64,000 nucleotides of DNA from assembly GCF_003334765.1 (NCBI RefSeq), contig NZ_QOWT01000008.1; one strand, written 5' to 3'. How positions within the stretch are numbered: the first letter of the stretch is position 1; each line of letters starts with the position of its first letter. The stretch comes from Escherichia coli. GTDB lineage: Bacteria > Pseudomonadota > Gammaproteobacteria > Enterobacterales > Enterobacteriaceae. The translations under genes were made by a program, and so were the position numbers. This document shows positions 25,559 to 47,738 of this stretch, piece by piece. The notes below the pieces were generated by a model that saw only the letters and a list, made by a program, of their open reading frames with translations, was not told where the DNA came from and ran no database searches.

Positions 25559-27838
25559 ATGGATGACCAGTTAAAACAAAGTGCACTTGATTTCCATGAA
25601 TTTCCAGTTCCAGGGAAAATCCAGGTTTCTCCAACCAAGCCTCTGGCAACACAGCGCGATCTGGCGCTGGCCTACTCACCAGGCGTTGCCGCACCTTGTC
25701 TTGAAATCGAAAAAGACCCGTTAAAAGCCTACAAATATACCGCCCGCGGTAACCTGGTGGCGGTGATCTCTAACGGTACGGCGGTGCTGGGGTTAGGCAA
25801 CATTGGCGCGCTGGCAGGCAAACCGGTGATGGAAGGCAAGGGCGTTCTGTTTAAGAAATTCGCCGGGATTGATGTATTTGACATTGAAGTTGACGAACTC
25901 GACCCGGACAAATTTATTGAAGTTGTCGCCGCGCTCGAACCAACCTTCGGCGGCATCAACCTCGAAGACATTAAAGCGCCAGAATGTTTCTATATTGAAC
26001 AGAAACTGCGCGAGCGGATGAATATTCCGGTATTCCACGACGATCAGCACGGCACGGCAATTATCAGCACTGCCGCCATCCTCAACGGCTTGCGCGTGGT
26101 GGAGAAAAACATCTCCGACGTGCGGATGGTGGTTTCCGGCGCGGGTGCCGCAGCAATCGCCTGTATGAACCTGCTGGTAGCGCTGGGTCTGCAAAAACAT
26201 AACATCGTGGTTTGCGATTCAAAAGGCGTTATCTATCAGGGCCGTGAGCCAAACATGGCGGAAACCAAAGCCGCATATGCGGTGGTGGATGACGGCAAAC
26301 GTACCCTCGATGATGTGATTGAAGGCGCGGATATTTTCCTGGGCTGTTCCGGCCCGAAAGTGCTGACCCAGGAAATGGTGAAGAAAATGGCTCGTGCGCC
26401 AATGATCCTGGCGCTGGCGAACCCGGAACCGGAAATTCTGCCGCCGCTGGCGAAAGAAGTGCGTCCGGATGCCATCATTTGCACCGGTCGTTCTGACTAT
26501 CCGAACCAGGTGAACAACGTCCTGTGCTTCCCGTTCATCTTCCGTGGCGCGCTGGACGTTGGCGCAACCGCCATCAACGAAGAGATGAAACTGGCGGCGG
26601 TACGTGCGATTGCAGAACTCGCCCATGCGGAACAGAGCGAAGTGGTGGCTTCAGCGTATGGCGATCAGGATCTGAGCTTTGGTCCGGAATACATCATTCC
26701 AAAACCGTTTGATCCGCGCTTGATCGTTAAGATCGCTCCTGCGGTCGCTAAAGCCGCGATGGAGTCGGGCGTGGCGACTCGTCCGATTGCTGATTTCGAC
26801 GTCTACATCGACAAGCTGACTGAGTTCGTTTACAAAACCAACCTGTTTATGAAGCCGATTTTCTCCCAGGCTCGCAAAGCGCCGAAGCGCGTTGTTCTGC
26901 CGGAAGGGGAAGAGGCGCGCGTTCTGCATGCCACTCAGGAACTGGTAACGCTGGGACTGGCGAAACCGATCCTTATCGGTCGTCCGAACGTGATCGAAAT
27001 GCGCATTCAGAAACTGGGCTTGCAGATCAAAGCGGGCGTTGATTTTGAGATCGTCAATAACGAATCCGATCCGCGCTTTAAAGAGTACTGGACCGAATAC
27101 TTCCAGATCATGAAGCGTCGCGGCGTCACTCAGGAACAGGCGCAGCGGGCGCTGATCAGTAACCCGACAGTGATCGGCGCGATCATGGTTCAGCGTGGGG
27201 AAGCCGATGCAATGATTTGCGGTACGGTGGGTGATTATCATGAACATTTTAGCGTGGTGAAAAATGTCTTTGGTTATCGCGATGGCGTTCACACCGCAGG
27301 TGCCATGAACGCGCTGCTGCTGCCGAGTGGTAACACCTTTATTGCCGATACATATGTTAATGATGAACCGGATGCAGAAGAGCTGGCGGAGATCACCTTG
27401 ATGGCGGCAGAAACTGTCCGTCGTTTTGGTATTGAGCCGCGCGTTGCTTTGTTGTCGCACTCCAACTTTGGTTCTTCTGACTGCCCGTCGTCGAGCAAAA
27501 TGCGTCAGGCGCTGGAACTGGTCAGGGAACGTGCACCAGAACTGATGATTGATGGTGAAATGCACGGCGATGCAGCGCTGGTGGAAGCGATTCGCAACGA
27601 CCGTATGCCGGACAGCTCTTTGAAAGGTTCCGCCAATATTCTGGTGATGCCGAACATGGAAGCTGCCCGCATTAGTTACAACTTACTGCGTGTTTCCAGC
27701 TCGGAAGGTGTGACTGTCGGCCCGGTGCTGATGGGTGTGGCGAAACCGGTTCACGTGTTAACGCCGATCGCATCGGTGCGTCGTATCGTCAACATGGTGG
27801 CGCTGGCCGTGGTAGAAGCGCAAACCCAACCGCTGTAA
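25559..27838 (+). CDS. maeB: NADP-dependent malic enzyme (malic enzyme fused to PTA-like domain)
   Basis: 759-aa ORF; N-terminal malic enzyme domain plus C-terminal phosphotransacetylase-like domain; recognised MaeB. Confidence 0.9.
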
Positions 27839-27880
27839 TTTTTTTAACTCTCACGCTTACCCTGAATATTCAGGGTAAGC

Positions 27881-28129
27881 AGTTTAGCTGCAATATATTA
27901 GTAAAGCTTATTACTGAGTTTGCGAATAATAAAAAAAAGCAGTCTATATAATATCTCGATATTATTTTATTTATATTCATGCGTTGCATATGAAAGTTTA
28001 TGCACCACAGCGAATATCTCTCCATTCTTAGTGATCTACCTCACCTTTTAAACGCGCTTGCCGAATTTTGTTATTTACTCTGACGAAAAATTGTCACGAT
28101 ACACGAAAGTTTTTCACAGGCGGCGACTC
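27881..28129 (+). promoter_or_regulatory. AT-rich eut operon promoter region
   Basis: About 250 bp AT-rich non-coding stretch immediately upstream of eutS; expected location of the main eut promoter; no motif mapped with confidence. Confidence 0.35.
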
Positions 28130-28465
28130 ATGGATAAAGAACGCATCATTCAGGAATTTGTGCCCGGCAAACAGGTCACACTGGCGCATCTCATCGCGCA
28201 TCCCGGTGAGGAACTGGCGAAGAAAATCGGCGTTCCGGATGCGGGCGCAATTGGCATTATGACGCTAACTCCCGGCGAAACGGCGATGATCGCCGGTGAT
28301 TTAGCGCTGAAAGCCGCTGATGTGCATATCGGTTTTCTCGACCGATTCAGCGGTGCATTGGTGATTTATGGCTCGGTGGGCGCAGTAGAAGAAGCGTTAT
28401 CACAAACCGTCAGCGGTTTAGGTCGCTTATTAAATTATACGCTTTGTGAAATGACCAAAAGTTAA
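28130..28465 (+). CDS. eutS: Ethanolamine utilization microcompartment shell protein EutS
   Basis: 111 codons from ATG 28130 ([21 protein letters not shown]...); BMC-domain shell protein; first gene of eut operon. Confidence 0.85.
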
Positions 28466-28477
28466 TACGAGGCATTC

Positions 28478-28957
28478 ATGAAACGAATTGCGTTTGTGGG
28501 TAGCGTCGGGGCAGGAAAAACAACGTTATTTAATGCGTTGCAGGGGAATTATACCCTCGCCAGAAAAACACAGGCCGTGGAATTTAATGATAAGGGCGAT
28601 ATTGATACGCCGGGTGAATATTTTAACCATCCCCGCTGGTATCACGCCTTAATTACCACGCTACAGGATGTAGACATGCTGATCTATGTCCATGGCGCAA
28701 ATGACCCGGAAAGTCGGTTGCCTGCCGGGTTGCTGGATATTGGCGTCAGCAAACGGCAAATCGCCGTCATCAGTAAAACGGACATGCCAGATGCTGACGT
28801 CGCCGCAACGCGAAAGTTATTGCTTGAGACGGGCTTCGAAGAGCCGATTTTCGAGCTAAACAGCCACGACCCGCAAAGCGTGCAGCAACTGGTGGATTAT
28901 CTGGCATCTCTCACCAAACAGGAGGAAGCAGGTGAAAAAACTCATCACAGCGAATGA
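28478..28957 (+). CDS. eutP: Ethanolamine utilization protein EutP (P-loop GTPase-like)
   Basis: 159-aa ORF with Walker A GSVGAGKTT. Confidence 0.85.
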   Translation: MKRIAFVGSVGAGKTTLFNALQGNYTLARKTQAVEFNDKGDIDTPGEYFNHPRWYHALITTLQDVDMLIYVHGANDPESRLPAGLLDIGVSKRQIAVISKTDMPDADVAATRKLLLETGFEEPIFELNSHDPQSVQQLVDYLASLTKQEEAGEKTHHSE

Positions 28958-29633
28958 TATTCGTGAAGCACACGCGCGCGGCGAACAGGCAATGTCCGTG
29001 GTTCTGCGCGCCAGCATTATTACCCCGGAAGCCCGTGAAGTGGCGGATCTACTGGGTTTTACCATCACCGAATGTGATGAATCGATCCCGGTAACGGCGT
29101 CCGTGCCCGCCAGCGTGCCAGCCGACAAAACCGAAAGCCAGCGCATCCGCGAAACCATCATTGCCCAGCTGCCGGAAGGCCAGTTTACCGAAAGCCTGGT
29201 CGCACAGCTGATGGAAAAAGTGATGAAGGAAAAACAGTCGCTGGAGCAGGGCGCAATGCAGCCGAGCTTCAAATCGGTGACCGGCAAAGGCGGCATCAAA
29301 GTGATTGATGGCAGTAGCGTCAAGTTTGGTCGTTTCGACGGCGCAGAGCCGCATTGCGTGGGCTTGACTGATCTTGTGACCGGAGACGACGGCAGCAGCA
29401 TGGCCGCCGGTTTTATGCAGTGGGAGAACGCATTCTTCCCGTGGACCCTGAACTACGACGAAATCGACATGGTGCTGGAAGGGGAGCTGCATGTTCGCCA
29501 CGAAGGCCAAACCATGATCGCCAAAGCAGGCGACGTGATGTTTATCCCGAAAGGCTCCAGCATCGAATTTGGTACGACATCCAGCGTGAAATTCCTGTAT
29601 GTCGCCTGGCCGGCTAACTGGCAATCCCTATGA
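28932..29633 (+). CDS. eutQ: Ethanolamine utilization protein EutQ (cupin fold)
   Basis: 233-aa ORF starting at GTG 28932 (GGAGG RBS), overlapping the eutP 3' end by 26 nt. Confidence 0.85.
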   Translation: MKKLITANDIREAHARGEQAMSVVLRASIITPEAREVADLLGFTITECDESIPVTASVPASVPADKTESQRIRETIIAQLPEGQFTESLVAQLMEKVMKEKQSLEQGAMQPSFKSVTGKGGIKVIDGSSVKFGRFDGAEPHCVGLTDLVTGDDGSSMAAGFMQWENAFFPWTLNYDEIDMVLEGELHVRHEGQTMIAKAGDVMFIPKGSSIEFGTTSSVKFLYVAWPANWQSL

Positions 29634-30433
29634 AAGATTTCATCACCGAAGCATGGCTAAGAGCGAACCATACGCTCAGCGAAGGCGCAGAGATCCATCT
29701 CCCTGCGGACAGTCGCCTGACGCCCTCTGCCCGGGAGTTGCTGGAAAGCCGCCATCTGCGCATCAAGTTTATTGACGAGCAGGGCCGCCTGTTTGTTGAC
29801 GATGAACAGCAGCAGCCGCAGCCCGTTCATGGGCTGACCAGTAGCGATGAACATCCGCAGGCGTGCTGCGAACTGTGTCGCCAGCCGGTGGCAAAAAAGC
29901 CGGATACGCTGACTCACCTGTCGGCGGAAAAAATGGTCGCCAAAAGCGATCCGCGTCTGGGTTTTCGCGCGGTTCTCGACAGCACCATTGCGCTGGCAGT
30001 GTGGCTGCAAATTGAACTGGCGGAACCGTGGCAGCCGTGGCTGGCGGATATCCGTTCGCGTCTTGGCAACATTATGCGCGCCGATGCGCTGGGGGAACCG
30101 CTGGGCTGCCAGGCGATTGTCGGGCTTTCTGACGAAGATCTGCATCGGCTTTCTCATCAGCCGCTGCGCTATCTCGACCACGATCATCTGGTGCCGGAAG
30201 CCAGCCACGGGCGCGATGCTGCGTTGCTCAATCTGCTACGCACCAAAGTGCGGGAAACCGAAACCGTAGCGGCGCAGGTCTTTATCACCCGCAGCTTTGA
30301 AGTATTACGCCCGGACATTTTGCAGGCGCTGAACCGCCTTTCGAGCACGGTCTACGTGATGATGATCCTGAGCGTAACGAAGCAGCCGCTAACGGTGAAG
30401 CAGATCCAACAACGACTGGGGGAAACGCAATGA
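29630..30433 (+). CDS. eutT: Corrinoid (cobalamin) adenosyltransferase EutT
   Basis: 267-aa ORF; ATG overlaps eutQ stop (ATGA); recognised EutT. Confidence 0.85.
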
Positions 30434-31446
30434 TTATTGAACGTTGTCGTGAACTGGCGTTGCGAGCGCCCGCCAGAGTGGTTTTTCCGGATGCGTTAGA
30501 CCAACGTGTGCTGAAAGCCGCGCAATATTTACATCAACAAGGTCTGGCAACGCCCATTCTGGTCGCCAATCCGTTTGAACTTCGTCAGTTTGCGCTCAGT
30601 CACGGCGTGGCGATGGACGGGCTACAGGTGATTGATCCGCATGGCAACCTCGCAATGCGGGAAGAATTTGCTCATCGCTGGCTGGCCCGCGCGGGCGAAA
30701 AAACGCCGCCGGATGCGCTGGAAAAACTTACCGACCCTCTGATGTTCGCCGCAGCAATGGTCAGCGCCGGTAAAGCGGATGTCTGTATCGCGGGCAACCT
30801 CTCTTCCACGGCAAATGTGCTGCGTGCCGGATTACGCATTATCGGCTTGCAGCCAGGCTGTAAAACGCTCTCTTCCATTTTCCTGATGTTGCCACAGTAC
30901 AGCGGCCCGGCGTTGGGCTTTGCCGATTGCAGCGTGGTGCCACAGCCGACGGCGGCGCAGCTGGCGGATATCGCGCTTGCCAGTGCCGAAACCTGGCGCG
31001 CCATCACCGGAGAAGAGCCGCGCGTGGCGATGCTGTCGTTTTCCAGCAATGGTAGCGCCCGTCACCCCTGTGTTGCTAACGTCCAGCAGGCGACAGAAAT
31101 CGTCCGTGAGCGCGCACCAAAGCTGGTGGTGGATGGCGAGTTACAGTTTGACGCCGCCTTCGTGCCGGAAGTGGCGGCGCAAAAAGCGCCTGCCAGCCCG
31201 CTACAGGGCAAGGCCAATGTGATGGTTTTTCCGTCGCTGGAAGCCGGAAATATTGGTTACAAAATCGCACAACGACTCGGCGGATATCGTGCCGTCGGGC
31301 CACTGATACAAGGACTTGCCGCGCCGATGCACGATCTCTCTCGTGGTTGTAGCGTGCAGGAAATTATCGAGCTGGCGCTGGTGGCAGCTGTGCCGCGTCA
31401 GACAGAAGTGAACCGCGAAAGCAGTTTACAAACACTGGTTGAATGA
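30430..31446 (+). CDS. eutD: Phosphotransacetylase EutD
   Basis: 338-aa PTA-family ORF; ATG overlaps eutT stop (ATGA). Confidence 0.9.
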
Positions 31447-31484
31447 ACGGTCCCGTTCTGGACCCTGATAAAGAGGAAAGCACA

Positions 31485-31778
31485 ATGGAAGCATTAGGAA
31501 TGATCGAAACCCGGGGCCTGGTTGCACTGATTGAGGCTTCTGACGCGATGGTGAAAGCTGCGCGCGTCAAGCTGGTTGGTGTTAAGCAGATTGGCGGCGG
31601 CCTGTGTACTGCCATGGTTCGTGGTGATGTTGCAGCCTGTAAAGCCGCGACCGATGCAGGTGCCGCAGCGGCACAGCGTATCGGCGAGCTGGTATCTGTA
31701 CACGTTATCCCGCGTCCGCACGGCGACCTGGAAGAAGTCTTCCCGATCGGCCTGAAAGGCGATAGCAGCAACCTGTAA
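31485..31778 (+). CDS. eutM: Microcompartment major shell protein EutM (BMC-H)
   Basis: 97 codons from ATG 31485 ([28 protein letters not shown]...); canonical BMC hexamer domain. Confidence 0.9.
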
Positions 31779-31884
31779 TCACCCTGTGTGACGTCGATTC
31801 GGGCGTCACGCTCTCTCCTTTTTCATTTTACCTTCTGCGGAGGGTAGGGGGAGCTTTTACCTGAAATACGCCACGGAGGCGGGT

Positions 31885-32172
31885 ATGAAACTGGCAGTCG
31901 TCACTGGACAAATTGTTTGTACCGTACGCCATCACGGACTGGCGCATGACAAATTGCTGATGGTGGAAATGATTGATCCACAAGGTAATCCTGACGGGCA
32001 ATGCGCCGTCGCCATCGACAATATTGGCGCGGGAACCGGGGAGTGGGTGTTACTGGTGAGTGGCAGTTCCGCCCGCCAGGCGCATAAAAGCGAAACGTCA
32101 CCGGTCGATCTGTGCGTGATTGGCATTGTCGATGAGGTGGTGTCTGGCGGTCAGGTAATTTTCCACAAATAA
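31885..32172 (+). CDS. eutN: Microcompartment vertex protein EutN (BMC-V)
   Basis: 95-aa ORF (MKLAVVTGQIVCTVRHHGL...), EutN/CcmL family; GGAGG RBS. Confidence 0.9.
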   Translation: MKLAVVTGQIVCTVRHHGLAHDKLLMVEMIDPQGNPDGQCAVAIDNIGAGTGEWVLLVSGSSARQAHKSETSPVDLCVIGIVDEVVSGGQVIFHK

Positions 32173-32183
32173 GGCAGAACATC

Positions 32184-33587
32184 ATGAATCAACAGGATAT
32201 TGAACAGGTGGTGAAAGCGGTACTGCTGAAAATGCAAAGCAGTGACACGCCGTCCGCCGCCGTTCATGAGATGGGCGTTTTCGCGTCCCTGGATGACGCC
32301 GTTGCGGCAGCCAAAGTCGCCCAGCAAGGGTTAAAAAGCGTGGCAATGCGCCAGTTAGCCATTGCTGCCATTCGTGAAGCAGGCGAAAAACACGCCAGAG
32401 ATTTAGCGGAACTTGCCGTCAGTGAAACCGGCATGGGGCGCGTTGAAGATAAATTTGCAAAAAACGTCGCTCAGGCGCGCGGCACACCAGGCGTTGAGTG
32501 CCTCTCTCCGCAAGTGCTGACTGGCGACAACGGCCTGACCCTAATTGAAAACGCACCCTGGGGCGTGGTGGCTTCGGTGACGCCTTCCACTAACCCGGCG
32601 GCAACCGTAATTAACAACGCCATCAGCCTGATTGCCGCGGGCAACAGCGTCATTTTTGCCCCGCATCCGGCGGCGAAAAAAGTCTCCCAGCGGGCGATTA
32701 CGCTGCTCAACCAGGCGATTGTTGCCGCAGGTGGGCCGGAAAACTTACTGGTTACTGTGGCAAATCCGGATATCGAAACCGCGCAACGCTTGTTCAAGTT
32801 TCCGGGTATCGGCCTGCTGGTGGTAACCGGCGGCGAAGCGGTAGTAGAAGCGGCGCGTAAACACACCAATAAACGTCTGATTGCCGCAGGCGCTGGCAAC
32901 CCGCCGGTAGTGGTGGATGAAACCGCCGACCTCGCCCGTGCCGCTCAGTCCATCGTCAAAGGCGCTTCTTTCGATAACAACATCATTTGTGCCGACGAAA
33001 AGGTACTGATTGTTGTTGATAGCGTAGCCGATGAACTGATGCGTCTGATGGAAGGCCAGCACGCGGTGAAACTGACCGCAGAACAGGCGCAGCAGCTGCA
33101 ACCGGTGTTGCTGAAAAATATCGACGAGCGCGGAAAAGGCACCGTCAGCCGTGACTGGGTTGGTCGCGACGCAGGCAAAATCGCGGCGGCAATCGGCCTT
33201 AAAGTTCCGCAAGAAACGCGCCTGCTGTTTGTGGAAACCACCGCAGAACATCCGTTTGCCGTGACTGAACTGATGATGCCGGTGTTGCCCGTCGTGCGCG
33301 TCGCCAACGTGGCGGATGCCATTGCGCTAGCGGTGAAACTGGAAGGCGGTTGCCACCACACGGCGGCAATGCACTCGCGCAACATCGAAAACATGAACCA
33401 GATGGCGAATGCTATTGATACCAGCATTTTCGTTAAGAACGGACCGTGCATTGCCGGGCTGGGGCTGGGCGGGGAAGGCTGGACCACCATGACCATCACC
33501 ACGCCAACCGGTGAAGGGGTAACCAGCGCGCGTACGTTTGTCCGTCTGCGTCGCTGTGTATTAGTCGATGCGTTTCGCATTGTTTAA
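32184..33587 (+). CDS. eutE: CoA-acylating acetaldehyde dehydrogenase EutE
   Basis: 467-aa aldehyde dehydrogenase-family ORF with N-terminal encapsulation-peptide-like region. Confidence 0.9.
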   Translation: MNQQDIEQVVKAVLLKMQSSDTPSAAVHEMGVFASLDDAVAAAKVAQQGLKSVAMRQLAIAAIREAGEKHARDLAELAVSETGMGRVEDKFAKNVAQARGTPGVECLSPQVLTGDNGLTLIENAPWGVVASVTPSTNPAATVINNAISLIAAGNSVIFAPHPAAKKVSQRAITLLNQAIVAAGGPENLLVTVANPDIETAQRLFKFPGIGLLVVTGGEAVVEAARKHTNKRLIAAGAGNPPVVVDETADLARAAQSIVKGASFDNNIICADEKVLIVVDSVADELMRLMEGQHAVKLTAEQAQQLQPVLLKNIDERGKGTVSRDWVGRDAGKIAAAIGLKVPQETRLLFVETTAEHPFAVTELMMPVLPVVRVANVADAIALAVKLEGGCHHTAAMHSRNIENMNQMANAIDTSIFVKNGPCIAGLGLGGEGWTTMTITTPTGEGVTSARTFVRLRRCVLVDAFRIV

Positions 33588-33597
33588 GGAGTAACAG

Positions 33598-34434
33598 ATG
33601 GCGCACGACGAACAATGGCTCACCCCACGTCTGCAAACGGCGGCAACGCTGTGTAACCAGACGCCCGCCGCGACGGAATCTCCGCTGTGGCTGGGGGTGG
33701 ATCTGGGCACCTGCGATGTGGTGTCGATGGTTGTCGACCGCGACGGTCAGCCAGTGGCGGTATGCCTCGACTGGGCCGATGTGGTTCGCGACGGCATCGT
33801 CTGGGATTTCTTCGGCGCTGTCACCATTGTTCGTCGCCATCTCGACACGCTCGAGCAGCAATTCGGTCGTCGTTTTAGCCATGCGGCGACTTCATTTCCT
33901 CCAGGTACGGACCCGCGTATTTCCATCAACGTGCTGGAATCTGCCGGACTGGAAGTGAGCCATGTGCTGGATGAGCCAACCGCAGTTGCGGATCTGCTGC
34001 AACTGGACAACGCCGGTGTAGTGGATATCGGCGGCGGCACTACCGGCATTGCCATCGTGAAAAAGGGCAAGGTGACGTACTCGGCGGATGAAGCCACCGG
34101 CGGACATCACATCTCTCTGACTCTCGCCGGAAATCGCCGTATTTCGCTGGAAGAGGCGGAGCAGTACAAGCGCGGTCACGGTGAAGAGATTTGGCCTGCG
34201 GTGAAACCGGTGTACGAAAAAATGGCGGACATTGTCGCCCGGCATATTGAAGGGCAGGGCATTACTGATTTATGGCTGGCGGGCGGCTCTTGTATGCAAC
34301 CGGGCGTGGCGGAACTGTTTCGCAAACAATTCCCGGCGTTACAGGTGCATTTACCGCAGCACAGTTTGTTTATGACCCCGCTGGCGATCGCCAGTAGTGG
34401 GCGAGAGAAAGCGGAGGGGCTATATGCAAAATGA
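33598..34434 (+). CDS. eutJ: Ethanolamine utilization chaperone-like protein EutJ (actin/Hsp70 fold)
   Basis: 278-aa ORF with DxG-type ATPase motifs (VDLGT, DIGGGTTG). Confidence 0.85.
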   Translation: MAHDEQWLTPRLQTAATLCNQTPAATESPLWLGVDLGTCDVVSMVVDRDGQPVAVCLDWADVVRDGIVWDFFGAVTIVRRHLDTLEQQFGRRFSHAATSFPPGTDPRISINVLESAGLEVSHVLDEPTAVADLLQLDNAGVVDIGGGTTGIAIVKKGKVTYSADEATGGHHISLTLAGNRRISLEEAEQYKRGHGEEIWPAVKPVYEKMADIVARHIEGQGITDLWLAGGSCMQPGVAELFRKQFPALQVHLPQHSLFMTPLAIASSGREKAEGLYAK

Positions 34435-35611
34435 ATTGCAGACCGCGCTCTTTCAGGCGTTCGATACCCTGAATCTGCAACGGGTAAAAACATTTAGCGT
34501 TCCACCGGTGACGCTTTGCGGTCCGGGCTCGGTGAGCAGTTGCGGACAGCAAGCGCAAACGCGTGGGCTGAAACATCTGTTCGTGATGGCAGACAGCTTT
34601 TTGCATCAGGCAGGGATGACCGCCGGGCTGACGCGTAGCCTGACCGTTAAAGGTATCGCCATGACGCTCTGGCCATGTCCGGTGGGCGAACCGTGCATTA
34701 CCGACGTGTGTGCAGCCGTGGCGCAGTTGCGTGAGTCAGGCTGTGATGGGGTGATCGCGTTTGGCGGCGGCTCGGTGCTGGATGCGGCGAAAGCCGTGAC
34801 GTTGCTGGTGACGAACCCGGATAGCACGCTGGCAGAGATGTCAGAAACCAGCGTTCTGCAACCGCGCTTGCCGCTGATTGCCATTCCAACTACCGCCGGA
34901 ACCGGCTCTGAAACCACCAATGTAACGGTGATTATCGACGCGGTGAGCGGGCGCAAGCAGGTGTTAGCCCATGCCTCGCTGATGCCGGATGTGGCGATCC
35001 TCGACGCCGCATTGACCGAAGGTGTGCCGTCGCATGTCACGGCGATGACCGGCATTGATGCGTTAACCCATGCCATTGAAGCATACAGCGCCCTGAACGC
35101 TACACCGTTTACCGACAGTCTGGCGATTGGTGCCATTGCGATGATTGGCAAATCGCTGCCGAAAGCGGTGGGCTACGGTCACGACCTTGCCGCGCGCGAG
35201 AGCATGTTGCTGGCTTCATGTATGGCGGGAATGGCGTTTTCCAGTGCGGGTCTTGGGTTGTGCCACGCGATGGCGCATCAGCCGGGCGCGGCGCTGCATA
35301 TTCCGCACGGTCTCGCGAACGCCATGTTGCTGCCAACGGTGATGGAATTTAACCGGATGGTTTGTCGTGAACGCTTTAGTCAGATTGGTCGGGCACTGCG
35401 AACTAAAAAATCCGACGATCGTGACGCTATTAACGCGGTAAGTGAGCTGATTGCGGAAGTTGGGATTGGTAAACGACTGGGCGATGTTGGTGCGACATCT
35501 GCGCATTACGGCGCATGGGCGCAGGCCGCGCTGGAAGATATTTGTCTGCGCAGTAACCCGCGTACCGCCAGCCTGGAGCAGATTGTCGGCCTGTACGCAG
35601 CGGCGCAATAA
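34424..35611 (+). CDS. eutG: Iron-containing alcohol dehydrogenase EutG
   Basis: 395 codons from ATG 34424 (MQNELQTALFQAF...), overlapping the eutJ 3' end by 11 nt; Fe-ADH family. Confidence 0.85.
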   Translation: MQNELQTALFQAFDTLNLQRVKTFSVPPVTLCGPGSVSSCGQQAQTRGLKHLFVMADSFLHQAGMTAGLTRSLTVKGIAMTLWPCPVGEPCITDVCAAVAQLRESGCDGVIAFGGGSVLDAAKAVTLLVTNPDSTLAEMSETSVLQPRLPLIAIPTTAGTGSETTNVTVIIDAVSGRKQVLAHASLMPDVAILDAALTEGVPSHVTAMTGIDALTHAIEAYSALNATPFTDSLAIGAIAMIGKSLPKAVGYGHDLAARESMLLASCMAGMAFSSAGLGLCHAMAHQPGAALHIPHGLANAMLLPTVMEFNRMVCRERFSQIGRALRTKKSDDRDAINAVSELIAEVGIGKRLGDVGATSAHYGAWAQAALEDICLRSNPRTASLEQIVGLYAAAQ

Positions 35612-35612
35612 A

Positions 35613-35797
<185 letters not shown>

Positions 35798-35827
35798 ATA
35801 AATAACAACTAACAGGGAGTAAAGGCG

Positions 35828-37054
35828 ATGGGAATTAACGAAATCATCATGTACATCATGATGTTCTTTATGCTGATAGCTGCCGTAGACAGGATCCTGT
35901 CGCAGTTCGGCGGTTCTGCTCGTTTCCTCGGTAAGTTCGGTAAAAGTATCGAAGGATCAGGCGGTCAGTTCGAAGAAGGCTTTATGGCAATGGGCGCACT
36001 GGGCCTGGCGATGGTCGGTATGACCGCGCTGGCACCGGTACTGGCTCACGTTCTCGGGCCGGTAATTATTCCGGTTTACGAAATGCTCGGCGCTAACCCA
36101 TCGATGTTCGCCGGAACACTGCTGGCGTGCGATATGGGCGGCTTCTTCCTCGCCAAAGAGCTGGCGGGCGGCGACGTAGCCGCGTGGCTATACTCTGGGT
36201 TAATTCTCGGGTCGATGATGGGGCCAACGATTGTGTTTTCCATTCCGGTGGCGCTCGGCATTATCGAACCTTCTGACCGTCGTTATCTGGCGCTCGGCGT
36301 GCTGGCGGGCATTGTGACCATTCCGATTGGTTGTATCGCTGGTGGTCTGGTTGCTATGTACTCCGGTGTGCAGATCAACGGCCAGCCGGTGGAATTCACT
36401 TTCGCCCTGATCCTGATGAACATGATCCCGGTGATCATTGTTGCGATTCTGGTGGCGCTGGGGCTGAAATTCATCCCGGAAAAAATGATCAACGGCTTCC
36501 AGATCTTCGCCAAATTCCTCGTTGCATTGATCACCCTCGGTCTTGCCGCTGCGGTAGTGAAATTCCTGCTTGGCTGGGAACTGATCCCCGGTCTGGATCC
36601 TATCTTTATGGCCCCTGGCGATAAACCCGGTGAGGTGATGCGCGCCATTGAAGTTATCGGTTCTATCTCCTGCGTTCTGTTAGGGGCGTATCCGATGGTG
36701 CTGCTGCTGACTCGCTGGTTTGAAAAACCGCTGATGAGCGTCGGTAAAGTACTGAATATGAACAACATCGCGGCAGCCGGCATGGTGGCAACGCTTGCCA
36801 ACAACATCCCGATGTTCGGCATGATGAAGCAGATGGATACCCGCGGCAAAGTCATCAACTGCGCCTTCGCCGTTTCCGCTGCTTTCGCCCTGGGCGACCA
36901 CTTAGGCTTCGCCGCTGCCAACATGAACGCCATGATCTTCCCGATGATTGTCGGCAAGTTGATCGGCGGCGTAACGGCGATTGGCGTGGCGATGATGCTG
37001 GTGCCAAAAGAAGACGCGACCGCGACTAAAACCGAAGCGGAGGCACAATCGTGA
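35828..37054 (+). CDS. eutH: Ethanolamine permease EutH
   Basis: 408-aa polytopic membrane ORF; recognised EutH. Confidence 0.9.
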   Translation: MGINEIIMYIMMFFMLIAAVDRILSQFGGSARFLGKFGKSIEGSGGQFEEGFMAMGALGLAMVGMTALAPVLAHVLGPVIIPVYEMLGANPSMFAGTLLACDMGGFFLAKELAGGDVAAWLYSGLILGSMMGPTIVFSIPVALGIIEPSDRRYLALGVLAGIVTIPIGCIAGGLVAMYSGVQINGQPVEFTFALILMNMIPVIIVAILVALGLKFIPEKMINGFQIFAKFLVALITLGLAAAVVKFLLGWELIPGLDPIFMAPGDKPGEVMRAIEVIGSISCVLLGAYPMVLLLTRWFEKPLMSVGKVLNMNNIAAAGMVATLANNIPMFGMMKQMDTRGKVINCAFAVSAAFALGDHLGFAAANMNAMIFPMIVGKLIGGVTAIGVAMMLVPKEDATATKTEAEAQS

Positions 37055-38454
37055 ACACTCGCCAGCTATTGAGCGTCGGTATCGATATCGGCACCACCAC
37101 CACCCAGGTGATTTTCTCCCGGCTGGAGCTGGTTAACCGTGCGGCGGTGTCGCAGGTGCCGCGCTACGAATTCATTAAACGCGAAATTAGCTGGCAAAGT
37201 CCGGTGTTCTTTACCCCTGTCGATAAACAGGGCGGTTTAAAAGAAGCGGAACTGAAAACCTTAATACTCGAGCAATATCATGCTGCGGGTATTGAGCCGG
37301 AAAGCGTTGATTCTGGTGCCATCATCATCACCGGTGAAAGCGCGAAAACCCGCAATGCTCGCCCGGCGGTGATGGCGCTCTCTCAGTCGCTGGGCGATTT
37401 TGTCGTTGCCAGCGCCGGGCCGCACCTCGAATCCGTGATCGCCGGTCACGGAGCCGGGGCACAAACCCTTTCTGAACAACGGCTGTGTCGGGTACTGAAT
37501 ATCGACATCGGCGGTGGCACCGCGAACTACGCCCTGTTCGATGCCGGAAAAATCAGCGGCACTGCCTGCCTCAACGTCGGTGGTCGCCTGCTGGAAACCG
37601 ACAGCCACGGGCGCGTGGTTTACGCTCATAAACCGGGGCAGATGATTGTGGATGAGTGCTTCGGTGCAGGCACCGACGCCCGTTCGCTGACCGGCGCGCA
37701 GCTGGTGCAGGTGACCCGGCGGATGGCAGAACTGATTGTCGAAGTGATTGACGGAACGCTCTCACCGCTCGCGCAGGCATTGATGCAAACCGGTTTGCTG
37801 CCCGCAGGTGTTACGCCCGAAATCATTACGCTTTCTGGCGGCGTGGGCGAATGTTATCGCCACCAGCCCGCCGACCCGTTCTGTTTTGCCGATATTGGCC
37901 CGCTGCTGGCAACTGCGCTGCATGACCATCCGCGCCTGCGTGAGATGAACGTACAGTTTCCGGCGCAAACCGTGCGCGCCACGGTGATTGGCGCGGGCGC
38001 GCATGCCCTTTCGCTCTCTGGCAGCACAATCTGGCTTGAGGGCGTACAACTGCCGCTGCGCAATTTGCCGGTGGCGATCCCGATTGATGAAACGGATCTG
38101 GTGGGGGCCTGGCAACAGGCGCTGATTCAGCTGGATCTTGATCCCAAAACTGACGCGTACGTGCTGGCGCTTCCCGCCTCGCTGCCTGTGCGTTACGCCG
38201 CGGTACTGACGGTCATCAACGCGTTGGTCGATTTCGTCGCGCGTTTTCCGAATCCGCATCCCCTGCTGGTGGTGGCCGGGCAGGACTTTGGTAAAGCTCT
38301 GGGCATGTTGTTGCGCCCACAGCTACAACAACTCCCGTTGGCAGTCATTGACGAAGTGATTGTCCGCGCGGGGGACTATATCGACATTGGTACGCCTCTT
38401 TTTGGCGGATCGGTTGTGCCGGTGACGGTGAAATCACTCGCATTTCCTTCCTGA
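37051..38454 (+). CDS. eutA: Ethanolamine ammonia-lyase reactivase EutA
   Basis: 467-aa ORF starting at GTG 37051 overlapping eutH stop (GTGA); recognised EutA. Confidence 0.9.
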   Translation: MNTRQLLSVGIDIGTTTTQVIFSRLELVNRAAVSQVPRYEFIKREISWQSPVFFTPVDKQGGLKEAELKTLILEQYHAAGIEPESVDSGAIIITGESAKTRNARPAVMALSQSLGDFVVASAGPHLESVIAGHGAGAQTLSEQRLCRVLNIDIGGGTANYALFDAGKISGTACLNVGGRLLETDSHGRVVYAHKPGQMIVDECFGAGTDARSLTGAQLVQVTRRMAELIVEVIDGTLSPLAQALMQTGLLPAGVTPEIITLSGGVGECYRHQPADPFCFADIGPLLATALHDHPRLREMNVQFPAQTVRATVIGAGAHALSLSGSTIWLEGVQLPLRNLPVAIPIDETDLVGAWQQALIQLDLDPKTDAYVLALPASLPVRYAAVLTVINALVDFVARFPNPHPLLVVAGQDFGKALGMLLRPQLQQLPLAVIDEVIVRAGDYIDIGTPLFGGSVVPVTVKSLAFPS

Positions 38455-38465
38455 GGGAACGACTT

Positions 38466-39827
38466 ATGAAACTAAAGACCACATTGTTCGGCAATGTATA
38501 TCAGTTTAAGGATGTAAAAGAGGTGCTGGCTAAAGCCAACGAACTGCGTTCGGGGGATGTGCTGGCGGGCGTCGCAGCGGCAAGCTCACAGGAGCGCGTG
38601 GCGGCAAAGCAGGTGTTGTCGGAAATGACCGTAGCGGACATCCGCAATAATCCGGTGATTGCCTATGAAGATGACTGCGTGACGCGGCTGATTCAGGACG
38701 ATGTTAACGAAACGGCCTACAACCAGATTAAAAACTGGAGCATCAGCGAACTGCGTGAGTATGTGCTGAGCGATGAAACCAGCGTGGACGACATTGCCTT
38801 TACCCGCAAAGGGCTGACCTCGGAAGTGGTCGCGGCGGTAGCGAAGATTTGCTCCAACGCGGACCTGATCTACGGCGCGAAGAAAATGCCGGTAATCAAA
38901 AAGGCCAATACCACCATCGGTATTCCGGGCACCTTTAGCGCCCGTTTGCAGCCAAATGACACCCGTGACGACGTGCAAAGTATCGCCGCGCAAATCTACG
39001 AAGGGCTTTCCTTCGGGGTGGGCGATGCGGTGATCGGCGTTAACCCGGTGACTGACGACGTGGAAAACTTAAGCCGCGTGTTGGATACCATCTATGGCGT
39101 GATCGACAAATTCAACATCCCAACTCAGGGCTGTGTACTGGCGCACGTCACCACCCAGATCGAAGCGATCCGTCGTGGCGCACCGGGCGGGCTGATTTTC
39201 CAGAGTATCTGTGGCAGCGAAAAAGGGCTGAAAGAGTTTGGCGTGGAGCTGGCGATGCTCGACGAAGCGCGCGCAGTGGGCGCGGAGTTCAACCGTATCG
39301 CCGGGGAAAACTGCCTCTACTTCGAAACCGGACAAGGCTCTGCGCTATCCGCTGGCGCTAACTTCGGCGCAGACCAGGTAACGATGGAAGCACGTAACTA
39401 CGGGCTGGCGCGTCATTACGATCCGTTTATCGTCAACACCGTGGTCGGCTTTATTGGGCCGGAGTATCTCTACAACGACCGCCAGATTATCCGTGCTGGC
39501 TTAGAAGATCACTTTATGGGCAAGCTGAGCGGCATCTCTATGGGCTGTGACTGCTGTTATACCAACCACGCTGACGCTGACCAGAACCTCAACGAAAACC
39601 TGATGATCCTGCTCGCCACCGCAGGCTGCAACTACATCATGGGGATGCCGCTGGGTGATGACATCATGCTCAACTACCAGACCACCGCATTCCACGATAC
39701 CGCCACTGTGCGTCAGTTACTCAACCTGCGCCCGTCACCGGAGTTTGAACGCTGGCTGGAAAGCATGGGCATTATGGCAAACGGTCGCCTGACCAAACGG
39801 GCGGGCGATCCGTCACTGTTCTTCTGA
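38466..39827 (+). CDS. eutB: Ethanolamine ammonia-lyase large subunit EutB
   Basis: 453-aa ORF; recognised EutB; begins 11 nt after the eutA stop. Confidence 0.9.
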   Translation: MKLKTTLFGNVYQFKDVKEVLAKANELRSGDVLAGVAAASSQERVAAKQVLSEMTVADIRNNPVIAYEDDCVTRLIQDDVNETAYNQIKNWSISELREYVLSDETSVDDIAFTRKGLTSEVVAAVAKICSNADLIYGAKKMPVIKKANTTIGIPGTFSARLQPNDTRDDVQSIAAQIYEGLSFGVGDAVIGVNPVTDDVENLSRVLDTIYGVIDKFNIPTQGCVLAHVTTQIEAIRRGAPGGLIFQSICGSEKGLKEFGVELAMLDEARAVGAEFNRIAGENCLYFETGQGSALSAGANFGADQVTMEARNYGLARHYDPFIVNTVVGFIGPEYLYNDRQIIRAGLEDHFMGKLSGISMGCDCCYTNHADADQNLNENLMILLATAGCNYIMGMPLGDDIMLNYQTTAFHDTATVRQLLNLRPSPEFERWLESMGIMANGRLTKRAGDPSLFF

Positions 39828-39847
39828 TGACGCGGAGATAACATATC

Positions 39848-40735
39848 ATGGATCAAAAACAGATTGAAGAAATTGTACGCAGCGTGATGGCGTCAATGGG
39901 ACAAGCGGCCCCCGCGCCGTCAGAAGCAAAGTGCGCCACCACCAACTGTGCGGCACCGGTGACCTCGGAAAGCTGTGCGCTGGATTTAGGTTCCGCTGAA
40001 GCAAAAGCGTGGATTGGTGTTGAAAATCCGCATCGCGCAGACGTATTAACAGAACTGCGCCGCAGCACCGTGGCCCGCGTTTGTACCGGTCGTGCCGGTC
40101 CGCGTCCACGTACGCAGGCGCTGCTGCGTTTCCTGGCCGATCACTCTCGTTCGAAAGATACCGTACTGAAAGAAGTGCCGGAAGAGTGGGTGAAAGCGCA
40201 GGGCTTGCTGGAAGTACGCTCTGAAATTAGCGACAAAAATCTCTACCTGACTCGCCCGGATATGGGCCGCCGCCTGTGTGCAGAAGCTGTTGAAGCGCTG
40301 AAAGCGCAGTGTGTTGCCAATCCGGACGTACAGGTCGTTATTTCTGATGGCCTGTCAACTGATGCGATCACCGTGAACTACGAAGAGATCCTGCCACCGC
40401 TGATGGCGGGCCTGAAACAGGCCGGGCTGAAAGTCGGTACACCATTCTTTGTTCGTTATGGTCGCGTGAAGATTGAAGATCAGATCGGTGAGATCCTCGG
40501 CGCGAAAGTAGTGATCCTGCTGGTGGGCGAACGTCCGGGGTTGGGTCAGTCAGAAAGCCTCTCCTGCTACGCCGTTTACTCGCCGCGTATGGCGACCACC
40601 GTTGAGGCCGATCGCACCTGTATCTCTAACATTCACCAGGGCGGCACGCCGCCGGTTGAAGCCGCAGCCGTCATTGTGGATTTGGCGAAACGTATGCTGG
40701 AGCAGAAAGCATCCGGCATCAACATGACCCGATAA
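39848..40735 (+). CDS. eutC: Ethanolamine ammonia-lyase small subunit EutC
   Basis: 295-aa ORF; recognised EutC. Confidence 0.9.
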
Positions 40736-40744
40736 GGAGGCATC

Positions 40745-41404
40745 ATGCCAGCTTTAGATTTGATTCGACCGTCTGTCACCGCTATGCGGGTGATTGCCTC
40801 CGTTAACGCCGATTTTGCGCGTGAACTGAAATTGCCGCCGCATATTCGTAGCCTCGGTCTGATTTCTGCCGACTCCGATGACGTCACCTACATTGCCGCT
40901 GATGAAGCGACCAAGCAGGCGATGGTGGAAGTGGTGTATGGCCGCTCGCTATATGCGGGCGCTGCACACGGCCCGTCACCGACTGCCGGTGAAGTGCTGA
41001 TTATGCTTGGTGGGCCAAACCCGGCGGAAGTGCGTGCAGGTCTGGATGCGATGATTGCGCATATTGAAAATGGCGCAGCTTTCCAGTGGGCTAATGACGC
41101 GCAAGATACGGCATTCCTGGCACATGTAGTTTCGCGTACCGGTTCTTATCTCTCATCAACCGCCGGGATCACGCTTGGCGATCCGATGGCGTATCTGGTG
41201 GCACCGCCGCTGGAAGCGACCTATGGCATTGATGCAGCCCTGAAGTCTGCCGACGTACAGCTGGCGACCTATGTCCCGCCACCGTCTGAAACCAACTACT
41301 CGGCAGCATTTTTAACCGGTAGCCAGGCAGCGTGTAAAGCAGCCTGTAACGCCTTTACCGATGCAGTGCTGGAAATCGCGCGTAATCCAATCCAGCGTGC
41401 GTAA
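40745..41404 (+). CDS. eutL: Microcompartment shell protein EutL (tandem BMC domain, BMC-T)
   Basis: 219-aa ORF; recognised EutL. Confidence 0.9.
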
Positions 41405-41416
41405 CGGAGGTTGCCG

Positions 41417-41917
41417 ATGATCAATGCACTGGGATTGCTGGAAGTGGACGGCATGGTCGCCGCGATAGATGCAGCGGATGCCATGCTCAAAGCAGCTAAC
41501 GTTCGTCTGCTCAGTCACGAAGTGCTTGACCCTGGTCGCTTAACGCTGGTGGTGGAAGGCGATCTGGCGGCGTGTCGTGCGGCGCTGGACGCAGGTTGTG
41601 CTGCCGCGATGCGTACCGGGCGTGTCATCAGCCGCAAGGAGATCGGTCGGCCAGACGATGACACCCAGTGGCTGGTTACTGGCTTTAACCGCCAGCCGAA
41701 GCAACCCGTAAGGGAACCCGACGCGCCAGTTATCGTCGCGGAATCTGCTGACGAGTTGTTGGCGCTGTTAACATCAGTACGTCAGGGAATGACGGCAGGA
41801 GAAGTGGCTGCCCACTTTGGCTGGCCGCTGGAAAAAGCCAGAAATGCGCTCGAACAGCTCTTTTCTGCCGGGACGTTACGTAAACGCAGTAGTCGTTATC
41901 GTCTCAAGCCCCATTAA
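41417..41917 (+). CDS. eutK: Microcompartment shell protein EutK (BMC domain plus C-terminal helix-turn-helix-like tail)
   Basis: 166 codons from ATG 41417 (MINALGLLEVDGMVAAIDAADAMLKAANV...). Confidence 0.85.
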   Translation: MINALGLLEVDGMVAAIDAADAMLKAANVRLLSHEVLDPGRLTLVVEGDLAACRAALDAGCAAAMRTGRVISRKEIGRPDDDTQWLVTGFNRQPKQPVREPDAPVIVAESADELLALLTSVRQGMTAGEVAAHFGWPLEKARNALEQLFSAGTLRKRSSRYRLKPH

Positions 41918-41962
41918 CCTGTCGGAGGTGCCGGGTGTCCTACAACACCCGGCATTAACATC

Positions 41963-43015
41963 ATGAAAAAGACCCGTACAGCCAATTTGCACCATCTTTA
42001 TCATGAACCCTTACCCGAAAACCTGAAGCTCACGCCGAAGGTCGAAGTGGATAATGTTCATCAACGACAGACAACGGATGTCTATGAACATGCTTTAACG
42101 ATTACCGCCTGGCAGCAGATTTACGATCAGCTGCATCCGGGCAAGTTTCATGGTGAATTTACGGAAATTCTACTCGATGATATTCAGGTTTTTCGTGAAT
42201 ACACCGGTCTGGCGCTGCGTCAGTCGTGCCTGGTCTGGCCGAACTCGTTCTGGTTTGGCATTCCGGCGACGCGCGGTGAGCAGGGATTTATCGGTTCGCA
42301 ATGTCTGGGAAGCGCGGAAATCGCCACCCGCCCTGGTGGCACTGAATTTGAACTGAGCACGCCGGATGATTACACGATCCTGGGCGTGGTGCTTTCTGAA
42401 GATGTCATCACCCGGCAGGCTAACTTTTTGCATAACCCGGATCGGGTATTACATATGTTGCGTAACCAGTCGGCGCTGGAAGTGAAAGAGCAGCATAAAG
42501 CCGCGCTGTGGGGCTTTGTCCAACAGGCGCTGGCGACGTTTTGCGAGAATCCGGAAAATCTCCATCAGCCTGCAGTGCGAAAAGTGCTGGGGGATAATTT
42601 GCTAATGGCGATGGGGGCCATGCTGGAAGAAGCGCAACCAATGGTGACGGCGGAAAGCATCAGTCATCAGAGTTACCGTCGATTGCTTTCCCGCGCCCGT
42701 GAATATGTGCTGGAAAACATGTCCGAACCGGTGACGGTGCTGGATTTGTGTAATCAACTGCATGTCAGCCGCCGCACGCTACAAAACGCGTTTCACGCTA
42801 TTTTAGGCATTGGCCCGAACGCGTGGCTGAAACGCATTCGCCTGAACGCCGTACGCCGCGAACTGATAAGTCCGTGGTCGCAAAGTATGACGGTAAAAGA
42901 CGCCGCCATGCAGTGGGGATTCTGGCATCTGGGGCAATTTGCCACGGATTACCAGCAGCTGTTTTCCGAGAAGCCGTCACTGACGCTGCATCAGCGGATG
43001 CGGGAGTGGGGGTGA
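41963..43015 (+). CDS. eutR: AraC-family transcriptional activator EutR
   Basis: 350-aa ORF with C-terminal AraC-type HTH; last gene of eut operon. Confidence 0.9.
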
Positions 43016-43020
43016 GGGAG

Positions 43021-43923
<903 letters not shown>

Positions 43924-44793
43924 TTATCGCTTTTTCGAATGTGCTTTCTGGTTGTCGAACCAGTGGAAATAACTGATCACGCCTTCAGCAATCGCTGTGG
44001 CGATTTTCTGACGAAACGCCGCCGTGCCTAACAGCCGTTCTTCTTCCGGGTTGGTGATAAACGAGGTTTCCACCAGCACCGAAGGAACCGACGGTGATTT
44101 CAACACCACAAATGCCGCTTGTTCGGTGTTGCGGCTGTGCAGTTTATGCACCGGCTTAATCTTCTTCAGAATATGCGAGCCGAGCGTCAGACTATTTTTA
44201 ATGGTATCTGTTTGCACCAGATCAAACAGCACTTGTTGCAATAGGTGATCCTTGTCAGTCGCCTTTTTACCGGCAACTTCATCGGCGCGGTTTTCGCGTT
44301 CAGACAGGTATTTCGCCATTGCGCTACTTGCCCCACGGTTAGAGAGGGCAAATACCGAAGCACCGGCAGCTTTCGGGTTGGTAAAGCCATCGGCATGAAT
44401 TGACATAAACAGATCTGCGCCATGTTTATGGGCGATTTCAACGCGATCGTAAAGTGGGATAAACGTATCGCCAGAACGCGTTAAACGCGCATCAATCCCA
44501 TGATTACGCAAAATGGAACGGACGTTTTTAGCAATCGCCAGCACCACATGTTTTTCTTTCGAACCGTTGCGTCCGATCGCTCCGGTATCAATTCCGCCGT
44601 GACCTGGATCGAGAACAACGACACGTTTGCCGCCAGATTTTTTGGCTTTCGGCTTGCTGTGTCCGTTGCTGGTTTTTAAAAGTTCGTCTTTGGCGATGGC
44701 TTGCGACATTCCTGACAACGTCAGGGCAGCCAAACCGGCTTTCAGCACCTGGCGGCGCGAAGTGAGTGTTTTTAGTGGTTTAAAAGTGCTCAT
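43924..44793 (-). CDS. amiA: N-acetylmuramoyl-L-alanine amidase AmiA
   Basis: 289-aa reverse ORF with twin-arginine signal (SRRQVLKAGLAALTL) and Amidase_3 domain. Confidence 0.9.
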   Translation of the reverse strand: MSTFKPLKTLTSRRQVLKAGLAALTLSGMSQAIAKDELLKTSNGHSKPKAKKSGGKRVVVLDPGHGGIDTGAIGRNGSKEKHVVLAIAKNVRSILRNHGIDARLTRSGDTFIPLYDRVEIAHKHGADLFMSIHADGFTNPKAAGASVFALSNRGASSAMAKYLSERENRADEVAGKKATDKDHLLQQVLFDLVQTDTIKNSLTLGSHILKKIKPVHKLHSRNTEQAAFVVLKSPSVPSVLVETSFITNPEEERLLGTAAFRQKIATAIAEGVISYFHWFDNQKAHSKKR

Positions 44794-45006: not shown

Positions 45007-45432
45007 ATGGAGATACGCGTATTTCGCCAGGAAGATTTCGAAGAGGTCATCACCCTTTGGGAGCGTTGCGACTTGCTGCGTCCGTGGAACGATCCGGAAA
45101 TGGACATCGAGCGTAAGATGAACCATGACGTCAGTTTGTTTTTGGTCGCTGAGGTAAACGGTGACGTGGTCGGAACGGTGATGGGCGGTTATGACGGGCA
45201 TCGCGGGTCTGCTTATTATCTTGGCGTGCATCCAGAGTTTCGTGGGCGTGGGATTGCCAATGCGTTGCTTAATCGGCTGGAGAAAAAGCTGATTGCTCGT
45301 GGCTGCCCGAAAATTCAGATCAATGTGCCGGAAGATAACGACATGGTGCTCGGAATGTATGAACGCCTGGGATATGAACACGCCGACGTGCTGAGTCTGG
45401 GTAAGCGTTTGATTGAAGATGAAGAGTACTGA
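45007..45432 (+). CDS. ypeA: GNAT-family acetyltransferase YpeA
   Basis: 141 codons from ATG 45007 ([18 protein letters not shown]...); GNAT motif region; ORF track start 44896 is an upstream in-frame alternative. Confidence 0.85.
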
Positions 45433-45868: not shown

Positions 45869-45928
45869 CGGCACTTTTTGGTGAATTTGCACTCCAAGCA
45901 ACGTTATTGAATAACCAAAGGAAGTGAC

Positions 45929-47499: not shown

Positions 47500-47580
47500 G
47501 CGTTTCTGATTCATTGATTAAAGGCCAGGCAGTAACATTACTGACTGGCCTCAGATTGTTGACCAAGTGCGCGTTGTACA

Positions 47581-47697
47581 CGCCGGATGCGGCGTGAACG
47601 CCTTATCCGGCCTACGAAATCGTGCTAATTCAATATATTGTGGGCTCCACGTAGGCCTGATAAGCGTAGCGCATCAGGCAGTTTTGCGTTTGTCAGC
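47581..47697. repeat. BIME (REP pair) between yfeX and yfeW
   Basis: GCCGGATGCGGCGTGAACGCCTTATCCGGCCTAC and GTAGGCCTGATAAGCGTAGCGCATCAGGC REP units; an inverted near-copy lies at 58491-58609. Confidence 0.75.
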
Positions 47698-47738
47698 ACT
47701 CTCAGACCAGCCAGTAACATTACTGACTGGCCTTTTTA

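Follow-up and report, generated by a model that had tools for sequence, protein, structure and literature searches.

The 64,000-nucleotide stretch of Escherichia coli DNA analysed here, referred to as the window, carries at 28130-43015 a 17-gene ethanolamine-utilisation (eut) operon, which is almost certainly the canonical EutR-regulated enterobacterial eut operon of E. coli in undisrupted form. The system has been described before and is here in its common, intact state, and nothing new lies in or around it. The 17 genes are all present, in canonical order and as full-length members of their families, at the E. coli eut locus, and the prophage found at this locus in K-12 is absent.

Gene content and integrity of the eut operon

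Gene calls were taken from the open reading frame (ORF) list for 27000-44500 of the window and from the RefSeq annotation of E. coli strain H3 mapped onto it, and the 17 translated products were scanned against NCBIfam at its curated cut-offs. The scan indicated that all 17 products scored above the cut-off and matched equivalog or subfamily models essentially end to end. The genes form 17 clean ORFs on the + strand in the order eutSPQTDMNEJGHABCLKR, the H3 annotation holds all 17 in the same order (with eutD named pta), and the coordinates of K-12 MG1655 map one-to-one onto them with equal lengths. The initial annotation had placed a 17-gene operon with every gene at full length at 28130-43015; this interval begins precisely at the eutS ATG and closes with the eutR stop codon, and the clean ORFs, the K-12-equal lengths and the end-to-end family matches bear out the statement on gene length as well. 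The genes are listed below, each with its NCBIfam model and the score in bits against the cut-off.

eutS, 28130-28465, + strand: shell protein, 111 aa; NF012012, 247 against 123, residues 1-111 on model positions 1-111
eutP, 28478-28957, + strand: EutP/PduV-family GTPase-like acetate kinase, 159 aa; NF012011, 350 against 258
eutQ, 28932-29633, + strand: cupin-type acetate kinase, 233 aa, GTG start; NF012001, 502 against 193
eutT, 29630-30433, + strand: cob(I)alamin adenosyltransferase, 267 aa; NF011595, 571 against 226
eutD (pta), 30430-31446, + strand: phosphotransacetylase, 338 aa; NF007233, 411 against 310, and TIGR00651, 331 against 311
eutM, 31485-31778, + strand: major hexameric bacterial microcompartment (BMC) shell protein of the BMC-H type, 97 aa; NF012018, 213 against 133
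eutN, 31885-32172, + strand: pentameric BMC-P vertex protein, 95 aa; NF011992, 210 against 118
eutE, 32184-33587, + strand: CoA-acylating acetaldehyde dehydrogenase, 467 aa; NF011927, 738 against 403
eutJ, 33598-34434, + strand: DnaK/actin-fold chaperone-like protein, 278 aa; NF011660, 402 against 182
eutG, 34424-35611, + strand: iron-type alcohol dehydrogenase, 395 aa; NF011998, 888 against 556
eutH, 35828-37054, + strand: ethanolamine permease or facilitator, 408 aa; NF011665, 874 against 574
eutA, 37051-38454, + strand: ethanolamine ammonia-lyase reactivase, 467 aa; NF007991, 1066 against 799
eutB, 38466-39827, + strand: ethanolamine ammonia-lyase large subunit, 453 aa; NF011649, 665 against 554
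eutC, 39848-40735, + strand: ethanolamine ammonia-lyase small subunit, 295 aa; NF003971, 340 against 230
eutL, 40745-41404, + strand: pseudohexameric tandem-domain BMC-T shell protein, 219 aa; NF011934, 400 against 198
eutK, 41417-41917, + strand: BMC-H shell protein with a C-terminal extension, 166 aa; NF012010, 362 against 218
eutR, 41963-43015, + strand: AraC-family operon activator, 350 aa; NF007522, 789 against 319

With both EutB and EutC above their cut-offs the signature enzyme is complete, and the same holds for the shell set, which comprises the hexamer-type proteins EutM, EutK and EutS, the tandem-domain EutL and the pentamer vertex protein EutN. The aldehyde-processing and cofactor-recycling core (EutE, EutD and EutG) and the B12 support pair (the reactivase EutA and the adenosyltransferase EutT) likewise passed in full, and the AraC-type EutR is the last gene of the operon. 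Residues 1-219 of EutL strongly matched the E. coli EutL crystal structures 3GFH and 3I82 (E 3.4e-140). In EutC the family match begins at residue 52, leaving about 50 N-terminal residues outside the catalytic model, and EutE has the N-terminal extension MNQQDIEQVVKAVLLKMQSS; both extensions are presumably encapsulation peptides. Rfam, searched at its gathering thresholds, gave no riboswitch family anywhere in the window, that for cobalamin included, and no two-component genes are annotated inside the operon in H3.

From eutS to eutR the 16 junctions measure 12, -26, -4, -4, 38, 106, 11, 10, -11, 216, -4, 11, 20, 9, 12 and 45 nt, negative values being overlaps, of which that between eutQ and eutP is 26 nt. 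The spacing had been described as tight or overlapping, which applies to 14 of the 16 junctions and fails at eutM-eutN (106 nt, with hairpins) and at eutG-eutH (216 nt, with a repetitive extragenic palindromic (REP) element array, or bacterial interspersed mosaic element (BIME)). That the operon is uninterrupted was confirmed at the junction where it is split in K-12: eutA and eutB are separated by only 11 nt in the window, as against the 6790 bp of CPZ-55 at this place in K-12, a cryptic prophage with intZ and yffL-yffS that spans 27192-33981 of the retrieved MG1655 segment. Two K-12 alignment blocks were found to overlap at the following site, and the junction sequences were then compared directly.

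Empty attachment site, 38432-38454, + strand: imperfect 23-bp stretch with the exact core CTTCCTGA at 38447-38454, including the eutA stop codon

The core is duplicated at both ends of the insert in K-12 and in strain ETEC1749, and is present in a single copy in the window. The window holds an unoccupied attB for IntZ-type integrative elements, with CPZ-55 absent, and the position of this IntZ/CPZ-55 attachment site is thereby fixed at the eutA stop codon. At the same site ETEC1749 carries an unrelated 10.3-kb IntZ island (1668-11979 of the retrieved segment) that holds intZ, an IS1, a murI copy and gadC/decarboxylase pseudogenes; eutH of that strain is frameshifted.

The prevalence of the intact junction was measured with a 500-bp query centred on eutA-eutB, which matched without a break in 4,965 of the 5,426 complete E. 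coli genomes; K-12 derivatives are among the split-junction genomes listed. An intact operon is therefore the norm in E. coli and K-12 the exception. In the record of the K-12 substrain AG100 (NZ_LN832404.1, 2561329-2561918) the junction query matched in two pieces within 590 bp, and CPZ-55 appears to be absent there, with about 90 extra bases at the eutA-eutB junction.

Structured spacers within the operon

The two wide junctions hold the following elements.

eutM-eutN spacer, 31779-31884, + strand: 106 nt with two RNA hairpins followed by the eutN Shine-Dalgarno sequence GGAGG
eutG-eutH spacer, 35612-35827, + strand: BIME of two 100-bp direct units of paired REPs, 35610-35697 and 35710-35797

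The hairpins of the eutM-eutN spacer start 8 nt past the eutM stop codon and consist of a 10-bp stem at 31786-31811, which was also picked up by a terminator-like scan, and a nested stem at about 31813-31853. The spacer RNA has a minimum free energy of -43.5 kcal/mol (z -2.86), and none of 200 shuffled sequences was as stable. For comparison, species-representative genomes were scanned with an EutN N-terminus pattern, which gave 22 loci, nearly all from Enterobacteriaceae, 20 of which yielded a eutM-eutN spacer. A strong stem-loop was present in all 20 of these further spacers (52-144 nt), among which distinct sequences are too few for a covariation test and most z-scores come from mononucleotide shuffles. 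The stem-loops are of two kinds with unrelated sequence. A lineage-specific hairpin resembling GTGACGTC/GACGTCAC occurs in Escherichia species, three Citrobacter strains, Entomohabitans and Yokenella, and REP-type palindromes occur in Salmonella diarizonae, C. sedlakii, C. koseri, C. amalonaticus, Klebsiella michiganensis, Pluralibacter and Pseudocitrobacter. The second hairpin is likewise shared by Escherichia, the three Citrobacter strains and Entomohabitans, and its inner stem, ACCTTC/GAGGGT in E. coli, reads GTTCTC/GAGAGC in Citrobacter and still pairs. As a separate observation, the assembly of the Gram-positive Gemelliphila palaticanis includes a 446-bp contig (JACBYF010000082.1, coverage 0.78) with an enterobacterial-type eutN start, which most likely represents contaminating reads and does not belong to a genuine eut gene of this species.

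REP or hairpin elements located between cistrons shield upstream mRNA from 3′ exonucleases, and by analogy the hairpin may shift expression in favour of the major shell protein over the vertex protein. It is conceivable, although we lean against it, that the stem-loop after eutM is a selected regulatory element, either an mRNA stabiliser or a partial terminator, which sets a high ratio of EutM (and upstream products) to EutN, and that one and the same need is met by unrelated sequences in different lineages, by a lineage-specific hairpin in some and by a captured REP in others. In the literature searched, no description of this stem-loop was found for eut. If the proposal is true, it would be a small addition on microcompartment stoichiometry and would not amount to a new system.

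In the eutG-eutH spacer the direct repeat is 88 bp long and 96.6% identical. Rfam naRNA4 (RF02564), a REP-derived family, was matched at 35666-35747 with 71.8 bits against a threshold of 59.5; like the REP325-derived elements of this family the spacer consists of paired REP palindromes, and the match identifies the BIME class only, not production of a nucleoid-associated RNA by this copy, whose unit number is polymorphic. Strain 3908 has three REP units and a spacer of 316 nt within a contiguous operon, as against 216 nt in the window, and the span is 100 bp shorter in the records of many genomes. This polymorphism bears on how the operon is counted. With the whole operon as query, 4,294 of the 5,426 genomes had at least 80% of it in one place, and many matches ended at query base 7668, which is window position 35797, the end of the REP repeat. 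We rejected both the reading of 4,294/5,426 as the share of uninterrupted operons, because overlapping pieces across the variable repeat stay unjoined, and that of a second insertion hot spot at 35797, where strain 3908 is contiguous with its three units. Since the repeat breaks whole-operon matches, the junction-specific count given above is the valid measure of intactness; more generally, the polymorphic 100-bp REP repeat is a pitfall that makes BLAST-based single-place coverage undercount contiguous operons.

Further REP elements were noticed outside the operon. The convergent ypfH-ypfN pair encloses a REP/BIME at 10879-10955 that matches naRNA4 in both orientations (- strand, 92.7 bits; + strand, 61.5 bits). 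An inverted pair of about 140-bp elements, 89% identical, lies at 47565-47703 in the yfeX-pbp4b spacer and at 58486-58627 in the cysM-yfeS spacer; each is made of two opposed REP palindromes flanking an AT-rich centre, and we take the pair to resemble BIME-1 or RIP-type (repetitive IHF-binding palindromic) elements with a site for integration host factor (IHF). The element at 58486-58627 gives an Rfam ES036 (CssrF) match at 58534-58576.

The surrounding chromosome

The entire 64 kb window is ordinary E. coli core chromosome. To the left of eut the order of genes is hyfC (cut), hyfB, hyfA, bcp, gcvR, dapA, bamC, purC, ypfJ, tmcA, ypfH, ypfN, dapE, yffB, ypfM, acrD, narQ, aegA, nudK, ypfG, tktB, talA and maeB, and to the right it is hemF, amiA, ypeA, yfeZ, yfeY, yfeX, pbp4b, murP, murQ, murR, ucpA, cysPUWAM, yfeS, yfeK, pdxK, crr, ptsI, ptsH and cysK (cut). 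The initial annotation had regarded eut as the only organised multi-gene system present, which is incorrect: cysPUWAM, murQP-pbp4b, ptsHI-crr, hyfAB(C), talA-tktB and dapA-bamC lie in the same window. It had also held that no long ORF was left unassigned. All ORFs do have E. coli homologues, yet ypfG, ypfJ, yfeK, yfeS, yfeY and yfeZ are functionally uncharacterised:

ypfJ, 7199-8062: conserved E. coli gene, putative zinc metallopeptidase
ypfG, 21159-22202: conserved E. coli gene, DUF1176, 347 aa
yfeZ and yfeY, 45419-46504: conserved E. coli genes, DUF2919 and DUF1131
yfeS and yfeK, 58662-59803: conserved E. coli genes, a WGR-domain protein and DUF5329

Its central statement, that the window contains a known system and no novel one, stands, since every base aligns to ordinary E. 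coli chromosomes. In the alignments to H3 and MG1655 no segment lacked an E. coli counterpart, and no ORF without an E. coli homologue was found. The annotated genes are all clean ORFs, and the gaps between them reach 383 bp at most, so that no free-standing ORF of at least 100 aa exists outside known E. coli genes. It is accordingly very improbable that an undescribed gene system, mobile element or RNA gene is hidden here, even though the two operon-internal spacers are structured and several neighbouring genes lack a known function. At gathering thresholds the only Rfam families in the window were REP-derived (naRNA4 at 10879-10955 and 35666-35747, ES036 at 58534-58576), and no tRNAs were present. 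A PADLOC search for defence systems among ten poorly characterised neighbour proteins gave no meaningful match, its sole hit being a weak, metallopeptidase-type one of YpfJ to capP (E 7e-4). Base composition in 2-kb bins revealed no compositional island in the window; the operon (28000-43000) is mildly richer in G+C, at 56-58%, than most flanking bins, at roughly 47-55%. The eut operon is said to have reached Enterobacterales through horizontal transfer (PMC6652756), with which its higher G+C is consistent.

The close relationship to K-12 raises the question of whether the window comes from a laboratory derivative of K-12 that was cured of CPZ-55 or had it deleted, and not from a lineage that was never infected. 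CPZ-55 aside, the window is 99.97-99.98% identical to MG1655 in the alignment, flanks included, and at least one K-12 record, AG100, has a nearly closed eutA-eutB junction. Outside the attachment-site overlap, however, it is set apart from MG1655 by 12 substitutions and one 1-base indel, scattered over hyfB, ypfH, acrD, maeB, eutP, eutA, yfeZ, yfeX, murR and ucpA, which we judged too many for a K-12 derivative; three of the substitutions fall in the eut interval, two in eutP (28834 and 28849) and one in eutA. Strain H3, a wild isolate from human faeces in Mexico, by comparison aligns collinearly with the window and shows one mismatch in the entire 64,000 bases. The operon is, moreover, identical or near-identical in isolates from pig, chicken, donkey, water and soil, and the junction is the clean, scarless native attB sequence. 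Given how widely the differences from MG1655 are spread and how nearly the window matches H3, we rejected a cured K-12 origin as highly implausible. As a megablast query, 28130-43015 matched in all 5,426 complete E. coli genomes, and the best matches, in many natural E. coli chromosomes, were 100% identical across all 14,886 bp.

Predicted function and relation to known eut systems

In the established Salmonella/E. coli model (PMC6652756, PMC7617246), EutR, present at a low constitutive level, would sense ethanolamine together with adenosylcobalamin and switch on the promoter upstream of eutS, and the 17 genes would be transcribed as one unit. Ethanolamine would enter the cell via EutH. A polyhedral protein shell built from EutS, EutM, EutN, EutL and EutK would enclose EutBC, EutE, EutD and EutG, with NAD+ and CoA recycled internally. 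Inside the shell the B12-dependent ammonia-lyase EutBC would convert ethanolamine to ammonia and acetaldehyde, and the shell would retain this volatile and toxic aldehyde. EutE is predicted to turn acetaldehyde into acetyl-CoA, EutG to reduce part of it to ethanol with recycling of NAD+, and EutD to make acetyl-phosphate with recycling of CoA; EutP and EutQ could then turn acetyl-phosphate into acetate and ATP. EutA would reactivate the lyase, EutT would adenylate cobalamin, and EutJ would act as a chaperone-like helper.

The upstream region in which the main promoter should lie is the following.

maeB-eutS spacer, 27839-28129, + strand: 291 nt, AT-rich, with a hairpin just after the maeB stop codon and upstream of the expected promoter site

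The EutR-dependent main promoter PI is expected in this spacer and a weak constitutive internal promoter PII would serve eutR, PI being assigned from PMC7617246 and PII described in the same paper. In a consensus scan of 27700-43300 no sigma-70 consensus was found upstream of eutS or eutR, and the two sigma-70-like sites inside the operon are fewer than expected from shuffled sequences. The lack of a sigma-70 consensus before eutS fits an activator-dependent promoter.

With its eutA-eutB junction intact, the source strain should be Eut+, which K-12 BW25113 is not, and should express the operon, assemble shells and grow on ethanolamine. In BW25113, which carries CPZ-55, eutS and eutR were induced whereas eutB was not, and no microcompartments formed, so that the insertion abolishes both eutB induction and microcompartment formation (PMC7617246). 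Induction by ethanolamine and B12, shell assembly and growth have been shown in other E. coli with an intact operon (PMC7617246, PMC6652756), among them Nissle 1917, which formed microcompartments and grew on ethanolamine with B12 (PMC7617246).

No sequence feature argues against the canonical-operon assignment. The simple consensus scan identified no promoter, as expected for an activator-dependent one, and left it unmapped. An intact operon is no guarantee of phenotype: in many commensal E. coli, ethanolamine serves solely as a source of nitrogen (PMC7617246). The operon might accordingly be intact but serve mainly for nitrogen scavenging, or be weakly expressed, and not support full growth on ethanolamine as a carbon source through the microcompartment, an outcome to which we give somewhat less than an even chance. 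Of 35 commensal E. coli, most obtained nitrogen from ethanolamine and only three obtained carbon from it (PMC7617246), and it is phylogroup-A-like commensal and animal isolates that the window resembles most. No feature seen here separates the two phenotypes, however, and the shell and enzyme genes are all full length. For the question of novelty the window can be put aside as a true negative, a result of little consequence. Its practical use is that the source strain can be marked as the carrier of an intact, presumably functional eut operon, unlike the K-12 laboratory strains.

Compared with known systems, the Firmicute-type eut loci of Enterococcus faecalis, Listeria and Clostridioides difficile share EutBC, BMC shell proteins, recycling of the EutE/EutD/EutG type and the metabolosome logic, and are controlled by the EutV/EutW two-component system and a small RNA with an adenosylcobalamin (AdoCbl) riboswitch. 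The window differs from them in gene order and content, in its AraC-type EutR and in having no cobalamin riboswitch at the Rfam threshold. The K-12 MG1655 operon (b2437-b2462) has the same 17 genes, order and protein lengths as the window, and differs in the 6790-bp CPZ-55 (intZ, yffL-yffS) between eutA and eutB, the site that is empty here. The Salmonella enterica operon, the experimental microcompartment model, has the same 17-gene content and order, and its regulation by ethanolamine and B12 depends on EutR (PMC6652756, PMC7617246). It is orthologous to the operon of the window and not identical: in S. enterica subsp. diarizonae the C-terminal region of EutM and the N-terminus of EutN are conserved with the window, whereas the spacer between the two genes carries REP-like palindromes in place of the Escherichia-type hairpin pair.

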